Counted from the first letter of the stretch, positions 38,877-48,913 are shown. The stretch: 64,000 nucleotides of DNA from Bacteroides sp. (GCA_011053095.1 DRHS01000127.1:27035-91034), one strand, 5' to 3'. Numbers and translations are program-made. Notes: generated by a model from the sequence alone, not told the origin.

Positions 38877-39224
38877 ATGAAAAAAATTGAAGCAATTATA
38901 CGAAAAACCAAATTCGAGGAAGTGAAAGAGACACTTCACGAATCAGGAATTGATTTTTTCACCTTCTTCCCTGCTACGGGAGTTGGTAAAGCACGTCAGA
39001 GCAGAGTTTACAGGGGTATCGCCTATGACACATCAAGCATTGAGCGTCTCTTGATATCAATTGTTGTAAGGGATATCAATGTCGATAAAACAATTGAGGC
39101 AATAATGAAGGCAGCCAATACAGGAGAGATTGGAGATGGAAAAATATTTGTCTCTGACATAATAGAGAGTTACAGGATACGTACCGGTGAGAAAGGAGAC
39201 GAATCCCTCTATACCAAGGATTAA
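38877..39224 (+). CDS. glnK: P-II family nitrogen regulator
   Basis: MKKIEAIIR N-terminus, T-loop-like segment, and TGEIGDGKIFV C-terminal signature. Directly upstream of amt. Confidence 0.9.
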   Translation: MKKIEAIIRKTKFEEVKETLHESGIDFFTFFPATGVGKARQSRVYRGIAYDTSSIERLLISIVVRDINVDKTIEAIMKAANTGEIGDGKIFVSDIIESYRIRTGEKGDESLYTKD

Positions 39225-39256
39225 CTATTAACAGAATTCAAGCAAAATATCATATC

Positions 39257-40507
39257 ATGGAAGAAACAAAAGTTTTAGAAGAGGTAGCTGGCTTGGTCAG
39301 TGAACTCACAATATCTCTCGATACGGTCTGGGTGCTTATTGCAGCAGTACTTGTTATGTTTATGCAACCTGGATTTGCCATGGTTGAGGCAGGATTTACC
39401 AGGCAAAAAAACACTGCCAATATATTAATGAAAAACCTGGCTGACTTTTCAATAGGAGCAATTGTCTTCTGGTTTGTTGGATATACAATTATGTTTGGGG
39501 AAGACATAGGTGGCCTTATTGGAAAAGTTTCGTTTTTCTTTAATAGTAATGGCGTGAATGGTATCACGGATAAATCCAGCCTGATGTTCCAGACCATGTT
39601 TGCTGCTACAGCCGCCACTATTGTTTCAGGAGCTGTAGCAGAACGGACTAAATTCAGCACCTATCTGATTTTTAGCCTGGTGATTACCATATTTATATAT
39701 CCTGTATCTGGTCACTGGATATGGGGTGGCGGATGGCTCTCAAATCTCGGATTTCACGATTTCGCCGGTTCCACGGTTGTGCATTCCGTTGGTGCATGGG
39801 TTGGACTTGCAGGTGCCGTGATGGTTGGACCAAGGATCGGAAAATACAATGGAAAACCAAATGCCATTCCCGGACATAACCTGACGCTGGGGGCACTTGG
39901 TGTATTCATTCTTTGGTTCGGCTGGTTCGGATTCAATTCCGGATCACAACTGGCAGCTGCAGGTACGGGCAATGCTTTAGCAATCTCACATATTTTCATT
40001 ACAACAAACCTTGCTGCAGCAGCTGGCGCTATGACTGCCATGTTCATAACCTGGCGAAGGTATAAGCGCCCGGGACTATCACTTACACTTAATGGTGCGC
40101 TTGCGGGACTTGTAGCCATAACTGCAGGCTGTGATATTGTTTCTCCCGGAGGAGCTTTAATCATAGGTATTATTGCCGGTATCGTATTGGTGTTCGGTGT
40201 TGAACTGTTTGACAGGATATTCAAAGTTGACGATCCGGTTGGAGCTATTTCCGTACATGGACTAAGTGGCGCAACAGGTACTCTTATGGTCGGATTATTT
40301 GCTACTGAAGGGGGTCTGTTCTACGGTGGTGGAGCTGGACTGCTTGGAGTACAGTTCATTGGTGTTCTATCCGTTGCCGCATGGGCTCTGGGACTTGGAT
40401 TCCTGCTGTTCTTTATCCTCAAGAAGACCCTTGGTATCAGGGTAGAGAAAATCGTTGAAGAAGAGGGACTGGATATTTATGAACACGGAGAATCTGTATA
40501 TAATTAA
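39257..40507 (+). CDS. amt: ammonium transporter
   Basis: 416 aa, 11-12 TM helices. DFAGSTVVHSVGAW and twin-His region motifs of Amt/MEP. Confidence 0.92.
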   Translation: MEETKVLEEVAGLVSELTISLDTVWVLIAAVLVMFMQPGFAMVEAGFTRQKNTANILMKNLADFSIGAIVFWFVGYTIMFGEDIGGLIGKVSFFFNSNGVNGITDKSSLMFQTMFAATAATIVSGAVAERTKFSTYLIFSLVITIFIYPVSGHWIWGGGWLSNLGFHDFAGSTVVHSVGAWVGLAGAVMVGPRIGKYNGKPNAIPGHNLTLGALGVFILWFGWFGFNSGSQLAAAGTGNALAISHIFITTNLAAAAGAMTAMFITWRRYKRPGLSLTLNGALAGLVAITAGCDIVSPGGALIIGIIAGIVLVFGVELFDRIFKVDDPVGAISVHGLSGATGTLMVGLFATEGGLFYGGGAGLLGVQFIGVLSVAAWALGLGFLLFFILKKTLGIRVEKIVEEEGLDIYEHGESVYN

Positions 40508-40553
40508 AACATAAGATCATTCTTAATTAATTAGTTTTAGATTTAGGTGGTAA

Positions 40554-40586
40554 AAGAAGGCGTTGAAAATCATTCAACGCCTTCTT
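40554..40586. terminator. hairpin terminator between convergent amt and trpB2
   Basis: Perfect 14-bp stem AAGAAGGCGTTGAA / TTCAACGCCTTCTT with a 5-nt loop. A/T-rich flanks (AAA on the left, T then ATT on the right); no long T-run on either strand. Confidence 0.8.
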
Positions 40587-40617
40587 TATTTACAAACCTA
40601 ACAATAGATTCTCTGTT

Positions 40618-42012
40618 TTACCATTTGCCGGATTTTGCTGTGCTAGGTTGAGGGAAATTTTTCAATGGGTCTGTATACTTTGTAATTTCTTCCTCGGGAA
40701 GGGCATAGTCTGTAAGTTCACCATTCAGAAATTTGTCATAACCAACAAGGTCCATCATACCATGACCACTCAGGTTAAATACAATCACTTTCTCTTTGCC
40801 CTCTTCTTTTGCTTTTTTAGCTTCCTGAATAGTAGCTGCCACAGCATGGCTTGTTTCAGGTGCCACTAAAATTCCTTCAGTTTTTGCAAACAGAATGGCG
40901 GATTCATAACATTCAAGCTGGTGGATTGATCTTGGATTCAGAAGTCCTTCTACCGCTGCTGCACTTACCAGGGGAGACATACCATGATACCTTAGTCCCC
41001 CGGCATGAATTGGCGGTGGAATAAATTCATGTCCCAGTGAATACATTGGAAGCAGAGGGGTCATACAGGCCACATCTCCATGATCGTAAGAAAATGGTGC
41101 ACGGGTTAATGTGGGACAAGAGGCCGGTTCTACCGGAATGATATCAATATCGGCACCGTGAATCTTATCGGCCACAAAAGGAAATGCAATTCCGGCGAAA
41201 TTACTTCCTCCTCCTGCACAGCCTATAATAGTATCCGGTGTTCTTTCTCCGAATATTTCAAGTTGCTTCTTAACCTCCTGACCAATAATTGTCTGGTGAA
41301 GTATAACATGGTTCAAAACCGACCCAAGACTGTAACGACTTTCACCGCTGGGGTCAGTTACGGCAGCTTCTATGGCTTCCGAAATGGCTATACCCAGGCT
41401 TCCCGGAGTATCCGGATATTTAGCCAGAATATCTTGTCCTGCTTTTGTTTCCGGGCTGGGACTGGCTACGCATTCAGCACCATAGGCTGCCATTAGCATT
41501 TTCCTGAAAGGTTTCTGGTCAAAACTTACCCGAACCATATAAACCTTACACTCAATTCCAACCAGGGAACAAGCAAAAGCCAGGGCGGAACCCCACTGTC
41601 CCGCACCTGTTTCTGTTGTCAGCTTCTTAATTCCGAATTCCTTATTGTACCATGCCTGTGCTACTGCAGTATTGGGTTTATGGCTGCCGGCCGGCGAGAC
41701 GGATTCATTTTTATAATAGATCCTGGCCGGAGTCCCAAGTGCCTTCTCAAGGTGATATGCCCTGTGCAGCGGAGTCGGGCGCCATCGATACAGCATCTCA
41801 AGAACACCTTCAGGAATATCGATCCAGCGTTCGGTACTTACTTCCTGCTCAATCAGGTTCATCGGAAATACGGGTGCAAGCATTTCGGGTCCGATAGGAT
41901 TTCCATCCGGTCCCAGAGGCGGCTGTGGCGGAGTTGGCAGATCTGCTGCCAGGTTATACCATTGCCTTGGCATGTCTTTTTCAGACAGGAAAACTTTGTG
42001 ATCTTTACTCAT
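40618..42012 (-). CDS. trpB: TrpB2-type (stand-alone) tryptophan synthase beta-like PLP enzyme
   Basis: 464 aa, long TrpB2-type N-terminus. PLP-lysine motif GSHKPNTA and GGGSNFAG phosphate loop. No trpA in the window. Confidence 0.88.
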
Positions 42013-42033
42013 AGTTAATTGGTTTTTAGATAC

Positions 42034-42065
42034 AAAAAGGGCATGCTGTAAACAACATGCCCTTT
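42034..42065 (-). terminator. intrinsic terminator inside the trpB2 5' leader (candidate attenuator)
   Basis: Minus-strand RNA AAAGGGCAUGUUG-UUUA-CAGCAUGCCCUUU. The stem is 13 bp with one G-U pair, and the U-tract reaches UUUUU. It ends 21 nt before the trpB2 ATG, and no upstream co-directional gene needs terminating. Confidence 0.6.
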
Positions 42066-42095
42066 AATTATTAATTATGCTTTAGCACACATTGA

Positions 42096-42161
42096 CTACA
42101 ACAATCGCCCGAAGCTATGCCAGCGCCAGACAGGAAAAGTTGTATTTGCAGTACAATGCAT
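42096..42161 (-). CDS. candidate Trp-codon leader peptide (MHCTANTTFPVWRWHSFGRLL)
   Basis: 21-codon ORF, ATG 42161-42159 to TAG 42098-42096. UGG codons at 42128-42126 and 42122-42120 give W-R-W. The stop lies 30 nt upstream of the terminator hairpin. Confidence 0.45.
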   Translation of the reverse strand: MHCTANTTFPVWRWHSFGRLL

Positions 42162-42270
42162 TGGTTTCAAATTACGATACAAAATAGTAATTAAATCATT
42201 AATGTCAACATATGAGGTAGAATTTTTCAGGATGCCGTATCTTTATAAGTAAATCCTTAAAACAATAGTC

Positions 42271-42936
42271 ATGAGAAAGCTGGTGTATCCCCTCCTAATT
42301 ATAATGCTGCTTGCTTGTGACCCGACCGTTCTATTCCTGGAGCCTCAACCAGAGGGTAAAAAAGATCTTAAAAGTTTTCCTGCAAAAGCCATGGGAACAT
42401 ATATGGAACTCGATGACAGTTCAATTCATATTATTACCGGCAGCTTTGTACTTGAGAGGTATGAGGAAACTATTGCAGACATTGCCGATGATATACTTGA
42501 GGATGAAGATATTGAACTGATCGGAGAGAACCTGCACCTCAAGGAAATGGATCTGACATTTCCAGTTACCTTGAAAAATGATTCTATATTCGGGCATGTA
42601 GTGATCTACGATACATTAATAAATCTGCTGAAAGGCAGTAAACTCAGAAAACTTGGTAAAGATTATTTTCTCAACCGATCAAGCGATAGTCTGTGGATTG
42701 TATTTAAATTAAACTTTGAGAAATCAGGGTATGCCTACCTCTGCGATATAGATCATGAAACTGAGATTGAGATATTTGAAAAGTACAGCAATGTTGATAC
42801 AGAAAAAAATGACCAGGGCAATCCAATGAATTATTTTCTTTCTCCAACAAGAAAGGAGCTGAAAACTTTATTAAAGCTGGAGACTTTTACTGATTCAACT
42901 GTATATATCCGGCTATCTCAGGACTTCCTAAGATAA
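42271..42936 (+). CDS. hypothetical lipoprotein
   Basis: Lipobox IIMLLAC, 221 aa. The 3' end overlaps the convergent gltD by 19 nt. Confidence 0.65.
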   Translation: MRKLVYPLLIIMLLACDPTVLFLEPQPEGKKDLKSFPAKAMGTYMELDDSSIHIITGSFVLERYEETIADIADDILEDEDIELIGENLHLKEMDLTFPVTLKNDSIFGHVVIYDTLINLLKGSKLRKLGKDYFLNRSSDSLWIVFKLNFEKSGYAYLCDIDHETEIEIFEKYSNVDTEKNDQGNPMNYFLSPTRKELKTLLKLETFTDSTVYIRLSQDFLR

Positions 42937-44345
42937 TCATCTATTGCTGCGGCTGCCTCCCGGCCTGAATAAATAGCCGTTACCACAAGGCTGGCACCAT
43001 TTCTTGCATCACCCGCAGCAAATACTTTCTCATGACTGGTGGCAAATTTAGTGTCAGTGACAATGTTTTTACGGGCATTTACATTCAGCTTCAGAGTATC
43101 AATTATTCCTTCCTGGACCGGATGAACAAATCCCATGGAGAGAAGTACCAAATCGGCATCATATACCTTTTCTGTTCCGGGAATTTCCTTCATTTGCATC
43201 TGTCCCTTAACATTCTTTACCCACTCCACTTCAATAAGTTCAAGTCCGGTAATATGTTGCATATCTCCCAGGAATCTCCTTGTAGACAGGCTCCATTTCC
43301 TCTCACATCCCTCCTCATGAGAGGTTGAAGTCTTTAGCTTTTGGTTATTGTGTGGCCAGTTTGCATTTTCTTTTCCGTCAAGTTCCCGGGGACGGGGCAG
43401 TATTTCTATCTGGGTAATTGATTTTGCACCCTGCCGTACCGCGGTCCCTACGCAATCAGATCCGGTATCACCCCCGCCAAGCACGATGACATTCTTATCC
43501 TTTGCATTTATCTGGTAATCATATGGAATTTCCAGTCCCCGGTTAACCTTATTTTGCTGCTTCAGGTAATCCATTGCAAAGTGGATTCCATCCGTATCCC
43601 GTCCTTCGACTGTAAGATCGCGGGGTTTTTCAGATCCTATCGCTATACAAACTGCATCGTATGAATCAATAAGCTCATTAATATCCAGGTTTCTGCCAAT
43701 CTCCTTGCCGGTCTGTATCTCAATCCCTTCGGAAAGCAAGATATTCAGCCTACGGTCAACAAGGTCTTTATTCAACTTGAAATCCGGAATACCGTAACGT
43801 AATAGTCCCCCGGCAGCATCTTCCTTTTCAAATACTGTTACCAGGTGTCCTGCCTTGTTCAGCTGATCAGCACATGCGAGTCCCGCGGGACCCGAACCAA
43901 TTACGGCTACCTTCATGCCGGTTCGCTTCGAAGGTGGATTTGGTTTTATATACCCTTCCCGGAAAGCCATCTCGGTTATGGCCGCTTCATTCTCGCGAAT
44001 GGTTACAGGAGATTTATCAATGGTCAGCACACAGGCATCTTCGCAGGGGGCAGGACATATTCTGCCGGTAAATTCCGGGAAGTTATTGGTGCTGTGCAAT
44101 ACATCACTGGCTTTCTTCCACTCTCCCTTGTAAAGCAGTTCATTAAACTCGGGTATTATATTTATCACCGGACAAGCCCAGTGGCAGAATGGTATCCCAC
44201 AATCCATACAGCGGGATGCCTGCAGTTTCCTGTCCTCCGAATTCAGTGTTTGTTCAACTTCACCAAAATCACGAACCCGGTCCTGCATCGGTCTGTTCCC
44301 GGCTTCTTTTCTTTCTATTTTCAAAAACCCCTTCGGATCTATCAT
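42918..44345 (-). CDS. gltD: glutamate synthase small subunit (NADPH)
   Basis: N-terminal Fe-S Cys clusters (CMDCGIPFC, CPAPCEDAC) and VAVIGSGPAG FAD/NAD motifs, 475 aa. Confidence 0.93.
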   Translation of the reverse strand: MIDPKGFLKIERKEAGNRPMQDRVRDFGEVEQTLNSEDRKLQASRCMDCGIPFCHWACPVINIIPEFNELLYKGEWKKASDVLHSTNNFPEFTGRICPAPCEDACVLTIDKSPVTIRENEAAITEMAFREGYIKPNPPSKRTGMKVAVIGSGPAGLACADQLNKAGHLVTVFEKEDAAGGLLRYGIPDFKLNKDLVDRRLNILLSEGIEIQTGKEIGRNLDINELIDSYDAVCIAIGSEKPRDLTVEGRDTDGIHFAMDYLKQQNKVNRGLEIPYDYQINAKDKNVIVLGGGDTGSDCVGTAVRQGAKSITQIEILPRPRELDGKENANWPHNNQKLKTSTSHEEGCERKWSLSTRRFLGDMQHITGLELIEVEWVKNVKGQMQMKEIPGTEKVYDADLVLLSMGFVHPVQEGIIDTLKLNVNARKNIVTDTKFATSHEKVFAAGDARNGASLVVTAIYSGREAAAAIDDYLRKS

Positions 44346-44365
44346 CTCATTAATATTTGCAATTT

Positions 44366-47300
44366 CTAATATACCCCCAGGATTTTACCGTCCTGGTTCT
44401 CCACATCGGTCTCAACTTCTTCGATCTTCCTTTTCAGGGCCTCTAGTTTTTCTTCTTCGAGTACCCGCTTATATTCATATGGAATTATCTTAATGAACCT
44501 GGGAATATAAGTCTCCCAGTTTTCCAGGACATCCTTTGCCCTGGGACTACCGGTGTACCTTTTGTGTTGCTGAATTAATCCCTGGAGTTCCCGTATATCA
44601 TTCATATCCTCGACAAGGGAAATCTCAACCATCCCCATATTGCAGTAGTAATCGAAATCGCCCTCGAGATCGAGTACATAAGCTATTCCACCGCTCATTC
44701 CGGCTGCAAAATTCCTGCCTGTCTTGCCCAGTACAACAGTCCTGCCCCCGGTCATATATTCGCAGCAATGATCACCGGTACCCTCTACAACTGCGGTTGC
44801 CCCTGAATTCCTGACACAAAACCGTTCCCCGGCATTACCATTTACATAGATCTCTCCACTTGTGGCTCCATAAAGTACTGTATTACCGGTAATTACATTC
44901 TCTTCAGGTTTAAATCTTGAACCCTGCGGGGTAACAACGATAATTTTTCCGCCTGAGAGTCCTTTTCCCAGGTAATCATTTGTATCCCCCTCCAAACGGA
45001 ACGTTACACCCCTTGTGAGAAAGGCCCCGAAACTTTGCCCTGCTGACCCCTTGAAGCCAACATGTATGGTATTCTCGGGAAGTCCTTCAAGACCGTACAG
45101 GGTAGAAATGCGACCGGAAAGCATCGCCCCGGTAGTCCTGTCTGTATTTTTAATCGTGTAGTTCAGAACAACTTTTTCCTTATTGTCAAGGGCAGGAGCA
45201 GATTTTTCAATCAATTCGAGATCCAGCACCTTGCCCGGCAAGTCGCGTTTGGTGGTTGTAAAACGCCTGTCATATTGAAGGGCTTCCTTAGAAATATGAA
45301 TAAGGGGTGAGATATCTACTGTAGAAGCTTTCCAATGATCCGATGCTTGTTTAATTTCAAGAAGATCAACCCGCCCCACCAGGTCATCAAAGTGTTTGAA
45401 TCCAAGTTCAGCCATTAATTCACGGACTTCCATTGCCAGGAAAGTGAAATAATTGACAAGGTAATCTGCCTTACCTGTATATCTTTTCCGGAGTTGCTCA
45501 TCCTGGGTAGCGATCCCGACCGGACAGGTATTTAGATGGCATTTGCGCATCATAATGCAGCCAAGGGAAATGAGTGCAGCTGTAGCAAATCCGAATTCTT
45601 CTGCACCCAGTAAGGCGGCCAGGATGATGTCAAGTCCTGTTTTCATCTGTCCGTCTGTCTGCAGGATTACATTACGTCTCAGGTTATTCATGACAAGAGT
45701 CTGCTGGGTTTCGGATAGACCGATCTCAACTGGTAATCCCGCGTGTTTGATGGAACTTGAGGGACTTGCACCGGTGCCTCCTTCTGAGCCACTGATTGTA
45801 ATAATATCAGCCCCGGCCTTTGCAACTCCGGCAGCTATGGTTCCAACTCCGGAAGCCGACACCAGTTTAACACTGACTTTGGCTTTAGGATTTACATTCT
45901 TCAGATCAAATATCAACTGTGCAAGGTCTTCAATCGAATATATATCATGGTGTGGAGGTGGCGAGATAAGGGTTATGCCCGGAATTGAATACCGTGTTTT
46001 TGCAATTATCTTATCCACCTTATGCCCGGGCAGTTGTCCCCCTTCACCCGGTTTTGCACCCTGGGCAACCTTTATCTGTATCTCATCTGCATTGACCAGA
46101 TAATAGTTTGTCACACCGAACCTGCCAGAAGCGATCTGCTTGATGGAACTACGAACACTGGAACCATCTTCCCGAGGAATGAATCGTTCCGGATCTTCTC
46201 CTCCCTCACCTGTATTACTTCGTCCTCCTATCCTGTTCATTGCCTCAGCAAGGGCCTCATGGGCCTCTTTCGAAATTGATCCGTAAGACATGGCTCCGGT
46301 GACAAATCTTTTAAATAATGCCTCCACAGGTTCAACCTCATCAATGTTGATAGGTTTCTTTTTTAGCCGGAAAAATCCACGAAGGAATGTTGGCTTCTGG
46401 TTCTGTTCATTAACGAGACCTGAGAATATTTTAAACCGCTCATAATCATTGGTTTTTACTGCCCATTGCAGATGTGTTATGGTTTCCGGGTTCCAGGCAT
46501 GGTGCTCCCCTTTCATTCTGAAATGATAAGTCCCGGAACTTTGAACCGGGTTATCCTCACCAATTGAATGAAATGCCTCAGAATGAGGGATGCTTGCTTC
46601 TGTAGCGATCTCTTCAATTCCAAGTCCATCAATCCTGCTGACAGTACCCTCGAAATATTTATCCACAACCGCCTGGCTAAGTCCCACAGCTTCAAAAATC
46701 TGGGCGGAGCGATATGACCTGAGGGTTGAGATACCCATCTTTGACAGGATCTTCAGGAGTCCCTTGTTGATAGCCTTTATATAATTTTCTTCTGCTCTCA
46801 GGTAATCGAGCTGTATGACCTTTTCCATGACAAGCTGCTCAATTACAGCAAATGCCAAATATGGATTGATAACCGATGCACCATATCCAAATAGAAGGGC
46901 AAAATGATGAACCTCTCTTGCTTCACCTGTCTCAACCACGATATCAATCTGCATCCTTTTCCTTGTATTTATCAGATGGTGATGCACTGAGGAAACCGCA
47001 AGAAGAGAAGGCACAGGAGCCATTTCAGGGCTAATTCCACGGTCTGTCAGAATGATGTAATTCTTACCCTCATCGACAGCCTGTTCAGCCTGCCGGCATA
47101 TATCGTCAACTGCTTTTGCCAGGGCTCCGGATCCTTCGTTTACAGGAAAATGCATGGGAATAGTCGATGCAGAGAATCCCTTATATCTCAGATTGGCAAT
47201 AACCTGAAAATAGGTATTGTTTACCACGGGACTGTGAAGCTTGATCATCTTGCTGTGCTCTGGTCCCTCATGAAGCAGGTTATCCTGCAGTGAACCGATA

Positions 47301-48913
47301 TAACCTGTAAGGGACATAACCAATTCCTCCCGTATAGGATCAATTGCCGGATTTGTTACCTGAGCGAAAAGTTGCCTGAAATAGTTGAAAAGCCTTTGTG
47401 GTTTGTCTGACAGAACAGCAAGAGGAGTATCGTTCCCCATACTGCCAACTGGTTCCTGTCCCTTTTCAGCCATTCCAGAAATAATGAATTCAACATCTTC
47501 CTTTGAATAACCGAATGCTTTAAGGTGACGATTGTAATCATCCCCTAAATCAGGTGAAACAATCCTTCCTACTTCGATATCATTAAGATTAATCCTGTTC
47601 TGGCTGAGCCACTCTCTGTAGGGATTATGTGTTGCAAGTTCCGATTTCAGTTCAGGATCATAGTGTATCTTTCCCTCTTTGGTATCAATAATGAGCATCT
47701 TGCCAGGTTTCAACCTGCCCTTCTCAATTATCTCCTGGGGCGGAAAGTACTTTACTCCCACCTCGGATCCCATGACTACGATGTCTGTATCTGTGATTAC
47801 ATACCGTGAAGGTCGGAGTCCGTTGCGGTCCAGCGTCCCACCAATATAACGGCCATCAGAAAAAATAAGTGAGGCCGGTCCGTCCCATGGCTCAATGAAG
47901 GTAGAATGATATTCATAAAAAGATCGCAGATCTTCTGATATTGGATTCTTTGTATTCCAGGATTCCGGAATCAGGCAGGAAACTGCATGGGGAAGTGATT
48001 TACCTGTCAGGTACATAAACTCCAGCACATTGTCCAGGCTGGCCGAATCCGATTTCTCAGGTTCGATTATCGGGAATATTTTATTCAGGTCCTCATCAAG
48101 GTAATGTGAATGGAGTAGAGATTCACGGGCCTCCATCCAGTAACGATTGCCTTTGATGGTATTGATCTCACCGTTATGAGCAAGCAACCGGAAAGGCTGA
48201 GCCAGATCCCATGATGGAAAAGTATTTGTAGAAAACCTGGAGTGTACAAGGGCAATGGCAGAGGTAAGCCTTTTGTCCTTAAGATCCAGGTAGTATTCAC
48301 CAAGTTGCCCGGAGGTTAGCATACCCTTGTAGATTAGGACACGAGTCGAGAGGCTTGGAATATAAAATATATCCTTACCCGAAATATTTGAATCCCTGAT
48401 TGCGTTCTCCACCCTCTTTCGGGCGACATACAGCCTGCGTTCAAATTCAAGCTGTTCCAGGTCAGCTTCGAGGAGGACCTGCTTCATTCCGGGCTCTGCT
48501 TGCCTGGCCAGATCTCCAATAGTAGTGTCGTCTCTCGGAACTTCTCTGTAGTCAATTATGGAAATCCCATGCTCAGCCATAATATCCTCAAAGATTTTCA
48601 GGCAATCTTCTTCCTGCTTTTTCTCCTTGGGAAGGAAAATAATGCCCGTACCAAACTGTCCCTCAGGAGGAACATTATATCCTTGTATCAGGTAGAAATC
48701 TCTTGGTATCTGGATCATTATACCTGCTCCATCACCGGTTTTACTGTCTGCCCCTTCAGCACCCCGATGGGTCATATTTTCGAGTACTTCAAGTCCCATG
48801 CTAATAATCTCATGTGACTTCTTACCACGAATATGGGTTACGAATCCAATTCCGCAATTATCATGCTCATACTCGGGTCTGTAAAGTCCCTCTTCCCGTG
48901 GTCTGATCTTCAT
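44366..48913 (-). CDS. gltB: glutamate synthase large subunit
   Basis: 1515 aa. N-terminal Cys (HDNCGIG) amidotransferase domain, FMN/3Fe-4S central region, GXGXG C-terminal domain. Confidence 0.95.
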   Translation of the reverse strand: MKIRPREEGLYRPEYEHDNCGIGFVTHIRGKKSHEIISMGLEVLENMTHRGAEGADSKTGDGAGIMIQIPRDFYLIQGYNVPPEGQFGTGIIFLPKEKKQEEDCLKIFEDIMAEHGISIIDYREVPRDDTTIGDLARQAEPGMKQVLLEADLEQLEFERRLYVARKRVENAIRDSNISGKDIFYIPSLSTRVLIYKGMLTSGQLGEYYLDLKDKRLTSAIALVHSRFSTNTFPSWDLAQPFRLLAHNGEINTIKGNRYWMEARESLLHSHYLDEDLNKIFPIIEPEKSDSASLDNVLEFMYLTGKSLPHAVSCLIPESWNTKNPISEDLRSFYEYHSTFIEPWDGPASLIFSDGRYIGGTLDRNGLRPSRYVITDTDIVVMGSEVGVKYFPPQEIIEKGRLKPGKMLIIDTKEGKIHYDPELKSELATHNPYREWLSQNRINLNDIEVGRIVSPDLGDDYNRHLKAFGYSKEDVEFIISGMAEKGQEPVGSMGNDTPLAVLSDKPQRLFNYFRQLFAQVTNPAIDPIREELVMSLTGYIGSLQDNLLHEGPEHSKMIKLHSPVVNNTYFQVIANLRYKGFSASTIPMHFPVNEGSGALAKAVDDICRQAEQAVDEGKNYIILTDRGISPEMAPVPSLLAVSSVHHHLINTRKRMQIDIVVETGEAREVHHFALLFGYGASVINPYLAFAVIEQLVMEKVIQLDYLRAEENYIKAINKGLLKILSKMGISTLRSYRSAQIFEAVGLSQAVVDKYFEGTVSRIDGLGIEEIATEASIPHSEAFHSIGEDNPVQSSGTYHFRMKGEHHAWNPETITHLQWAVKTNDYERFKIFSGLVNEQNQKPTFLRGFFRLKKKPINIDEVEPVEALFKRFVTGAMSYGSISKEAHEALAEAMNRIGGRSNTGEGGEDPERFIPREDGSSVRSSIKQIASGRFGVTNYYLVNADEIQIKVAQGAKPGEGGQLPGHKVDKIIAKTRYSIPGITLISPPPHHDIYSIEDLAQLIFDLKNVNPKAKVSVKLVSASGVGTIAAGVAKAGADIITISGSEGGTGASPSSSIKHAGLPVEIGLSETQQTLVMNNLRRNVILQTDGQMKTGLDIILAALLGAEEFGFATAALISLGCIMMRKCHLNTCPVGIATQDEQLRKRYTGKADYLVNYFTFLAMEVRELMAELGFKHFDDLVGRVDLLEIKQASDHWKASTVDISPLIHISKEALQYDRRFTTTKRDLPGKVLDLELIEKSAPALDNKEKVVLNYTIKNTDRTTGAMLSGRISTLYGLEGLPENTIHVGFKGSAGQSFGAFLTRGVTFRLEGDTNDYLGKGLSGGKIIVVTPQGSRFKPEENVITGNTVLYGATSGEIYVNGNAGERFCVRNSGATAVVEGTGDHCCEYMTGGRTVVLGKTGRNFAAGMSGGIAYVLDLEGDFDYYCNMGMVEISLVEDMNDIRELQGLIQQHKRYTGSPRAKDVLENWETYIPRFIKIIPYEYKRVLEEEKLEALKRKIEEVETDVENQDGKILGVY

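Follow-up and report, generated by a model that had tools for sequence, protein, structure and literature searches.

A predicted tryptophan leader-peptide attenuator upstream of stand-alone trpB2 in Bacteroidales

Our analysis of a 64,000-nucleotide stretch of Bacteroides sp. DNA (GCA_011053095.1 DRHS01000127.1:27035-91034; hereafter the window, with positions counted from its first letter) centers on a leader element directly upstream of trpB2, a gene for a stand-alone TrpB-like enzyme. The element combines a short open reading frame (ORF) carrying in-frame Trp codons with three alternative helices; both are conserved among relatives, and the link to trpB2 is exclusive. We propose that it is, most probably, a ribosome-mediated leader-peptide transcription attenuator that ties trpB2 expression to the supply of charged tRNA-Trp. 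An interpretation of this kind was first advanced from the window's sequence alone (the sequence-only reading), and comparative evidence now argues for it. The leaders very probably constitute an uncatalogued attenuator family specific to trpB2 in Bacteroidales, operating by a mechanism that would itself be ordinary.

Reading the minus strand of 41900-42500 places the start ATG of the leader ORF at 42161 and its stop TAG at 42098-42096, with Trp codons at 42128-42126 and 42122-42120 and an Arg codon, CGC, between them (42123-42125). A 30-nt spacer separates the stop codon from a hairpin, AAAGGGCAUGUUG-UUUA-CAGCAUGCCCUUU at 42065-42036, whose U tract reaches 42034 and ends 21 nt before the trpB2 ATG (42012). 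All these parts, the ORF, its W-R-W motif, the spacer, the hairpin with U5, and the final gap, lie where the sequence-only reading had put them, and gene calls agree with the amt/gltBD context it described as well as with its remark that no co-directional upstream gene could need the hairpin. Among the terminator-like sites in 39000-45000 this hairpin ranks first (13 pairs, 6 G-C), with an energy of about -19.4 kcal/mol. The downstream gene is likewise of the kind that had been claimed, a monocistronic, stand-alone TrpB2: its product scores 698.7 bits with NF009057 (cutoff 366) and 622.1 with TIGR01415 (cutoff 518.85), above the cutoffs of both TrpB2 models, versus 158.6 with the canonical trpB model TIGR00263, under the cutoff of 392.45. 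The features of the region are collected in Table 1.

Table 1. Features of the trpB2 leader region in the window, in the order in which they would be transcribed
Feature	Coordinates	Strand	Description
Promoter-like hexamer TTGACA	42203-42208	-	candidate -33/-35 element, putative function
Box TATTTTG	42180-42186	-	candidate Bacteroidetes -7 element; position conserved in relatives
Leader ORF	42096-42161	-	21 codons plus TAG, peptide MHCTANTTFPVWRWHSFGRLL; homologous ORF in 66 distinct sequences
Segment 1	42140-42159	-	leader codons 1-8 (GCAUUG.ACUGCA...ACAA); 5' arm of the predicted anti-antiterminator 1:2 helix
Regulatory codons UGG-CGC-UGG	42120-42128	-	W12-R13-W14; WRW core in 63/66 leaders
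Segment 2	42087-42104	-	UUGUUGUAGUCAAUGUGU; holds the leader stop UAG (42098-42096); pairs with segment 1 or 3
Intrinsic terminator	42034-42065	-	13-bp stem (10-bp G-C core), UUUA loop, U5 tract
Segment 3	42045-42060	-	GCAUGUUGUUUACAGC; terminator 5' arm, loop, and first 3'-arm bases; antiterminator 3' arm
trpB2	40618-42012	-	464-residue TrpB-like pyridoxal phosphate enzyme; monocistronic, stand-alone, convergent with amt; Pfam PALP

The sequence-only reading had made its case depend on conservation of the leader upstream of trpB2 orthologues, and the leader is indeed conserved. A scan of one genome per species, based on protein relatives, yielded 80 loci, for each of which the 200 nt upstream were inspected and ORFs and hairpins extracted (the regular expression used for hairpins missed the bulged terminators of what we call group C below). 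A homologous leader is present in 33 of the 42 Bacteroidota trpB2 loci with enough upstream sequence, in each case as a short ORF containing clustered Trp codons and, after it, a GGGGCAUGUU...CCCC-U(5-10) terminator. The other nine assessable loci, all Bacteroidales, have neither leader ORF nor terminator nor a match to the covariance model described below within 300 nt upstream (L025, L032, L036, L043, L054, L063, L064, L074, and L077), and no leader was found at the non-Bacteroidota loci among the 80. The upstream regions of the nine leaderless loci are very A+T-rich, and some share an upstream block of their own, as do L036, L043, and L054 (TTGTCAAATTTAATAATATTTT...).

To approach the leader independently of its gene, we searched metagenomes with a pattern holding leader and terminator bases only, TGGCGNTGG-N50-80-GGGCATGTT-N8-18-CCCNTTTT. 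Of the 47 matches to this gene-blind pattern, 42 are real leaders: in 39, a trpB2 gene (74-92% identical) begins 20-60 nt downstream, and three are evident leaders cut by a contig end. The remaining five are chance matches inside coding sequence, and none of the 47 places a leader ahead of any gene other than trpB2.

Genomes and metagenomes together, with duplicates removed, gave 66 distinct leaders. Their ORFs are 21-30 codons long, and 9-11 residues precede the first Trp in 65 of the 66. The Trp codons number 2-6 per leader (mean 4.1), are all in frame, and cluster at codons 10-16, so that Trp makes up 15.7% of leader residues versus 1.3% in TrpB2. The W-R-W core recurs in 63 leaders. We then built a covariance model, R1, from 60 trpB2 leaders, excluding the window. 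R1 matches the window at 42034-42169 on the minus strand over the full model length (69 bits, E=2.7e-16), its only sense-strand match in the 64 kb. On the 80 genome loci it finds one copy per leader-bearing locus, always upstream of trpB2, and it also recovers four distant members outside its building set. Leaders from Prolixibacteraceae (L050:2822-2964, L053:2825-2965, and L056:110-250) are distant members of the family at 26-27 bits with R1; their peptide reads ...YKYGWWISPW..., the terminator begins only 6-7 nt past the stop codon, and these leaders may use a different arrangement.

The core of the terminator is 100% paired across the alignment of the window with 17 relatives (group A; alignment A1, 18 sequences), and over 60 family members 97.6% of terminator cells are paired, with an A-U/G-C swap between groups. 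As a whole, the 191-nt leader reaches a folding energy of -48 kcal/mol (z=-2.94), a stability that 0/200 dinucleotide shuffles match. On full-length alignments, RNAalifold recovers little beyond the terminator; the alternative helices emerge only when the alignments are cut before segment 4.

Folding the region, as the sequence-only reading had suggested, reveals mutually exclusive structures, the 1:2, 2:3, and 3:4 helices, and these are conserved. The pairing it proposed between the spacer and the left arm of the terminator is real, its 8 bp forming the inner half of a 15-pair helix. In the window, this antiterminator 2:3 joins GUUGUAG.CAAUGUGU (42102-42087) to GCAUGUUG.UUACAGC (42060-45) in 15 pairs with one mismatch, and the duplex energy of -17.8 kcal/mol (z=-3.6) is reached by none of 200 shuffles. 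RNAalifold on A1, cut before segment 4, finds the same 15-pair helix (GUUGUAG.CAAUAUGY / RCAUGUUG.UUACAAC, -14.7); 97.8% of its 270 cells are paired, versus 25-57% in slid controls. Nine of its pairs vary on one side, all compatibly with wobble pairing, and in each of the 18 group-A leaders the 2:3 arm begins either 5 nt ahead of the stop codon or 1 nt past it. The 1:2 helix, which in minimum-energy folds encloses a hairpin of the Trp codons, is present in the minimum-energy fold of every group-A leader. On A1 its 16 pairs are paired in 79.5% of cells, against 30-47% in slid controls, with two-sided changes at six pairs and a covariation score of 0.219 versus 0.147 (0/500 shuffles), the scored structure having been taken from the window's own fold.

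Outside group A, the antiterminator is built from other sequence. In group C (37 sequences, alignment A2), AUGCUUCGU pairs with RCGGGGCAU (98.8% paired, two compensatory pairs, 3/500 shuffles), and the Trp-codon segment GCGAUGGC can pair with the antiterminator arm in what amounts to the classical 1:2 arrangement; in group B, GUAAACAACAUG pairs with CAUGUUGUUUAC. The antiterminator arm has thus shifted between groups and yet always competes for the 5' arm of the terminator, which we take as evidence for function. For the duplex of segment 3 with the post-stall spacer, energies are lower than those with shuffled spacers, at a family median of z=-2.5 and with 65% of members below -2; the rows for L003, L065, and L091 were disregarded since the automatic finder had mis-called their terminators. 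Group-C leaders also carry an extra in-frame Trp codon inside the antiterminator 5' arm (A2 columns 70-85, e.g., L038:2819-2834), in the codons GAU GCU UCG UGG GCA AUG (D-A-S-W-A-M); stalling at this codon would keep the antiterminator from forming.

To ask what each ribosome position would permit, we cut the window transcript short of segment 4 and masked 29 nt of it as a ribosome footprint. Masking the Trp codons lets the truncated transcript adopt the antiterminator; a footprint at the stop codon prevents the antiterminator from forming, and the full-length RNA then forms the terminator.

In conjunction with the comparative analysis, we propose the following model for the control of trpB2. 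Transcription would start ~10-15 nt upstream of the leader ATG. Segment 2 would then choose between segments 1 and 3, and segment 3 between segments 2 and 4, the 3:4 pairing being the terminator followed by U5. When Trp is plentiful, a translating ribosome would reach the UAG inside segment 2 and cover that segment, allowing 3:4 to form and transcription to end 21 nt before trpB2. If the leader is left untranslated, segment 2 would be held in the 1:2 helix, again leading to termination. When charged tRNA-Trp is scarce, the ribosome would stall at UGG-CGC-UGG, ~20 nt upstream of segment 2, and break the 1:2 helix; segment 2 would stay free to pair with segment 3 as it emerges, the 2:3 pairing would prevent the terminator from forming, and trpB2 would be transcribed. 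The model takes as inferred both the start site with its promoter and the translation of the ORF, as well as the kinetics and the response to Trp. The parts by which attenuators of this class are recognized are found in the element: a short 5' ORF with clustered codons for the amino acid of the regulated gene, an intrinsic terminator between this ORF and the structural gene, an antiterminator that in silico can form when a ribosome stalls at the Trp codons but not when one sits on the stop codon, and a 1:2 anti-antiterminator pairing that would permit termination without translation of the leader.

Several observations weigh against this proposal. The covariation analysis, which the sequence-only reading had put forward as a check, divides: two-sided changes are found in the 1:2 helix and in the group-C antiterminator, but covariation proper is absent from both the antiterminator and the terminator within group A, where the 2:3 helix has no double changes, and both group-C compensatory pairs stem from a single sequence, L065. 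None of the Prolixibacteraceae leaders L050, L053, and L056 yielded an antiterminator that outperformed shuffles. A ribosome at the stop codon would leave the antiterminator arm uncovered in groups B and C, where the arm sits 13-27 nt upstream of that codon. The full-length RNA favors the terminator at equilibrium even with the footprint on the Trp codons, and once the window transcript is truncated and free of ribosomes, the antiterminator exceeds 1:2 in stability (-28.0 versus -23.5, two values that are only roughly comparable, given that the former is the whole truncated fold and the latter the leader segment alone in 1:2). The leader in the window, moreover, is the sole one of the 66 with just two Trp codons, and transcription-translation coupling is, to our knowledge, not established in Bacteroidota.

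The preference for the terminator at equilibrium means that the switch must be kinetic, that is, co-transcriptional, and that thermodynamics alone cannot show it. The E. coli trp leader likewise favors its terminator at equilibrium and depends on co-transcriptional kinetics. As for the small number of Trp codons, the closest relatives of the window leader have one more GCTGGC (Trp-Arg) repeat than it does (A1 columns 52-57), and this 6-nt deletion leaves it with fewer Trp codons than any other family member. The same shortened, two-Trp version occurs in three independent assemblies from other samples (L128-L130), in which 258/258, 258/258, and 177/178 positions are identical to the window leader; hence, it is no assembly artefact.

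What is the relevance of the Arg residue between the Trp residues? It is the least ordinary feature of the family, conserved at the amino-acid level: the 63 leaders with W-R-W use five synonymous codons for it (CGA 35, CGT 12, CGC 10, CGG 5, and AGG 1), a pattern suggestive of selection acting on the peptide or Arg decoding and not on the RNA sequence, and one that leaves a small chance of a peptide-dependent sensing mode. One may consider a nascent-chain arrest sensor in which the W-R-W peptide stalls the ribosome on free tryptophan or indole in a TnaC-like manner, and trpB2 is induced by substrate or product rather than by starvation. More broadly, W-R-W could be an arrest module dependent on the nascent peptide or on Arg decoding that senses free Trp, indole, or joint Trp/Arg status. 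That TrpB2 uses indole would fit such a sensor, and if it existed, it would be a mechanistically distinct one dedicated to TrpB2 indole salvage. The remainder of the peptide, however, is poorly conserved outside the Trp cluster, the number of Trp codons varies between two and six as expected of a sensor that counts codons, and the layout of intrinsic terminator, antiterminator, and stop codon at the arm is the classical tRNA-charging design. An Arg beside a Trp run is also found in the Bacteroid-trp leaders (WWWR), and E. coli TrpL has WWR, with Arg next to its Trp codons. TnaC, for its part, acts through Rho and carries a spaced W...D...P motif that is absent from the trpB2 leaders. We regard an arrest sensor of either form as improbable, with a slim chance of being correct.

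A conserved promoter-like box of its own and a strong terminator also give the leader the outline of a gene for a small RNA or small protein. It is conceivable that the ~135-nt leader or the 21-residue peptide acts mainly in trans, with control of trpB2 secondary, and the rnTrpL/peTrpL pair of Sinorhizobium offers a precedent (PMC6614838, PMC7298713). However, no copy of the element was found standing alone or anywhere but directly ahead of trpB2; the peptide is variable outside the Trp cluster, and a conserved alternative pairing with the terminator arm would be purposeless in a simple small RNA. Any trans role would in addition add to attenuation rather than replace it, and we consider it very improbable that this is the principal function of the unit.

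We are equally doubtful that the ORF is untranslated and that a TRAP-like protein or another factor binds the repeated UGG-CGN-UGG RNA, or that termination is simply constitutive. UGG triplets repeated at 6-nt spacing might invite such a factor, but the repeats never leave the reading frame of an ORF whose length is conserved and which is bounded by start and stop codons, indels among the leaders are multiples of three, and the frame is kept where the start codon is TTG (two leaders) or GTG (one leader). The stop codon and the antiterminator arm are linked in position, no candidate for a binding protein accompanies the locus, and with only 2-6 triplets per leader the array is short, given that TRAP needs 9-11 (G/U)AG repeats. 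These considerations make an RNA-binding factor highly unlikely. Finally, a random short ORF beside a hairpin insulating the divergent intergenic region might have been entertained for the window alone, a single 21-codon ORF with two Trp codons being not improbable in one 258-nt intergenic region, but the retention of ORF, Trp cluster, and terminator in 66 distinct homologous sequences, the R1 match, and the failure of all 200 shuffles to fold as well have effectively refuted a chance origin.

Having set these possibilities aside, we return to ribosome-mediated attenuation and its known examples. In enterobacterial trpL, adjacent Trp codons, with an Arg codon after them, are followed by the 1:2, 2:3, and 3:4 pairings and a U tract, and the stop codon sits at the edge of segment 2, so that a terminating ribosome blocks the antiterminator. 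The trpB2 leader has the same logic of a leader ORF with three competing helices. It differs in that segment 1 lies upstream of the Trp codons, which themselves form an inner hairpin within 1:2; in that it would control one stand-alone salvage-type gene and not a biosynthetic operon; and in the lack of an evident TrpR operator. The scan with the Rfam Trp_leader model that had been recommended gave nothing: RF00513 (enterobacterial) has no match at E<=10 in the window region or nine related loci.

A closer counterpart exists within the same phylum. Bacteroid-trp (RF01692), a Bacteroidetes Trp leader of canonical trp operons, was predicted in 2010 (Weinberg et al. 2010, PMC2864571). It consists of an intrinsic terminator preceded by a short ORF that contains at least two UGG codons and presumably senses low Trp through attenuation. 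Leader-peptide attenuation, which the sequence-only reading had described as classic for proteobacterial trp operons, is therefore not only proteobacterial. Bacteroid-trp shares with the trpB2 leader the predicted mechanism and the layout of the peptide, ~8 residues, often ending ...N-T-x, and then a Trp run with Arg (e.g., MRTMLVNTYWWWRPLQLRQS). Unlike the alternating W-R-W(-x-W) of the trpB2 leaders, however, Bacteroid-trp has contiguous WWW(R), its terminator sequence differs, and its translatable downstream genes are trpE or, in Parabacteroides, the canonical TrpB1 (MKTYQVDENGYYGEFGGAYVPE...), none of them TrpB2; the Parabacteroides TrpB1 that follows Bacteroid-trp (...YYGEFGGAYVPE...) heads a trp operon. 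RF01692 gives no match at gathering score, and none at E<=10 in the 601-nt leader region or nine related loci. A hidden Markov model of the trpB2 leaders (alignment A3) does find weak colinear matches among the Bacteroid-trp seeds, at most 14 bits in a tiny search space, and a distant common ancestry, with the two families paralogous, is possible. Some flavobacterial Bacteroid-trp leaders resemble the trpB2 leaders weakly in UGGUGG.A.AAC...UCGUG.GC, and AAUAC (Asn-Thr) before the Trp run is common to both.

Trp leader-peptide attenuators have also been predicted in actinobacteria by comparative genomics (Seliverstov et al. 2005, PMC1262725). They resemble the trpB2 leader in combining Trp-codon ORFs with a terminator and an antiterminator and in conserved complementary triples common to the alternative helices; they differ in phylum and sequence, and their targets are trp operons and trpS rather than TrpB2 of the TIGR01415 type. 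The 'trpB2A' of that study is the second trpB copy of C. diphtheriae. Literature searches on trpB2 combined with leader peptide, attenuation, or Bacteroid* returned no description of a trpB2 leader, and Naville & Gautheret (2010) mention neither Bacteroid* nor tryptophan.

Some members of the same trpB2 clade in other phyla may be controlled in another way. At 13 non-Bacteroidota loci, trpB2 is directly preceded on its own strand by a gene of the PF01371 Trp_repressor family (91-111 residues; two of these genes were tested and scored 67-68 bits). The gap ranges from -4 to 117 nt, and the genes sit ~10-330 nt upstream of the trpB2 match. These loci (L010, L015, L017-L019, L024, L030, L031, L039, L040, L075, L078, and L080) are labeled Spirochaetota, Myxococcota, Leptospirales, SAR324, Eubacteriales, and several unclassified metagenome-assembled genomes; their trpB2 products are 74-79% identical to the window protein, and neither a leader ORF nor a terminator was found there. 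This arrangement suggests an operon of a TrpR/YerC-like regulator with trpB2 in other phyla. It is of a protein-repressor type, unlike the leader, yet occupies the same position, and Trp-responsive control is suggested for the trpB2 clade. A candidate attenuator ahead of trpB2 in Bacteroidales and a Trp-repressor gene elsewhere together provide in silico evidence that trpB2 would be on when Trp is short.

The role of stand-alone TrpB2 enzymes has been debated for ~25 years, with indole salvage, serine deamination, and O-phosphoserine-dependent Trp synthase activity proposed. A TrpB2 homologue of B. thetaiotaomicron rescued an E. coli trpA mutant only with cross-fed indole (PMC11535334). Induction of trpB2 by Trp shortage would fit synthesis of Trp from scavenged indole. 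The leaders would represent a second family of Trp leaders in Bacteroidota, one absent from Rfam. The mechanism being a textbook one, the gain is incremental; the main value of the system may lie in TrpB2 physiology and in a testable Bacteroidota attenuator. Since it is compact (~135 nt), the element could serve as a test case for ribosome-coupled attenuation in this phylum, whose members largely do without Shine-Dalgarno-led initiation.

A promoter-like pair would mark the start of the predicted leader transcript. TTGACA-16 nt-TATTTT, with 10/12 matches, is the best promoter-like site in 39000-45000, and the TATTTTG box resembles the Bacteroides -7 consensus TAnnTTTG. In 48 of the 66 distinct leaders the start codon of the leader ORF is preceded by a TATTTT box at a distance of 23-29 nt (mode 26), and in relatives TTG recurs ~19-21 nt upstream of that box. 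We place the putative transcription start near 42172, leaving a 5' untranslated region of ~10-15 nt ahead of the leader ATG; together with the terminator, these features would point to a promoter dedicated to the leader and to a terminated RNA of ~135 nt. In the leaders L001-L127 the pair is kept at the same position as TTG..(~19-21 nt)..CTATTTT(C/A/G)G, and an A-rich run often lies ~60-70 nt upstream.

Other readings of the hairpin were discarded. As a terminator for a plus-strand transcript it would have the tail UUUAAUUAUU, and no co-directional gene ends there. No Rfam family reaches gathering score in the window or at 11 loci, and a search of Rfam 15 at E<=10 over the 601-nt region and nine related loci returned only terminator-driven noise, including STnc40 and AbsR25, both set aside as artefacts of the hairpin and U tract. 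A match to CncR1 on the plus strand (window 41974-42083; 27 bits against a gathering score of 76, E=3e-4) is likewise an artefact, since the reverse complement of the terminator hairpin with its A/U-rich flanks produces it.

The wider surroundings of trpB2 (window 38877-48913) form a nitrogen-assimilation neighborhood, with trpB2 between genes for P-II and an ammonium transporter on one side and gltD-gltB on the other. P-II and amt lie downstream of trpB2 on the plus strand, convergent with it, and on its upstream side follow a divergent 221-residue ORF, gltD, and gltB. In L129 the same TrpB2 protein has a different downstream side, lacking amt, and the linkage to nitrogen genes is therefore not fixed. 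The 221-residue ORF (42271-42936, plus strand) has no Pfam or NCBIfam match and begins with a lipoprotein-like N-terminus (MRKLVYPLLIIMLLAC...). It overlaps the 3' end of gltD by 19 nt on opposite strands and is kept beside trpB2 in L128 and L129.

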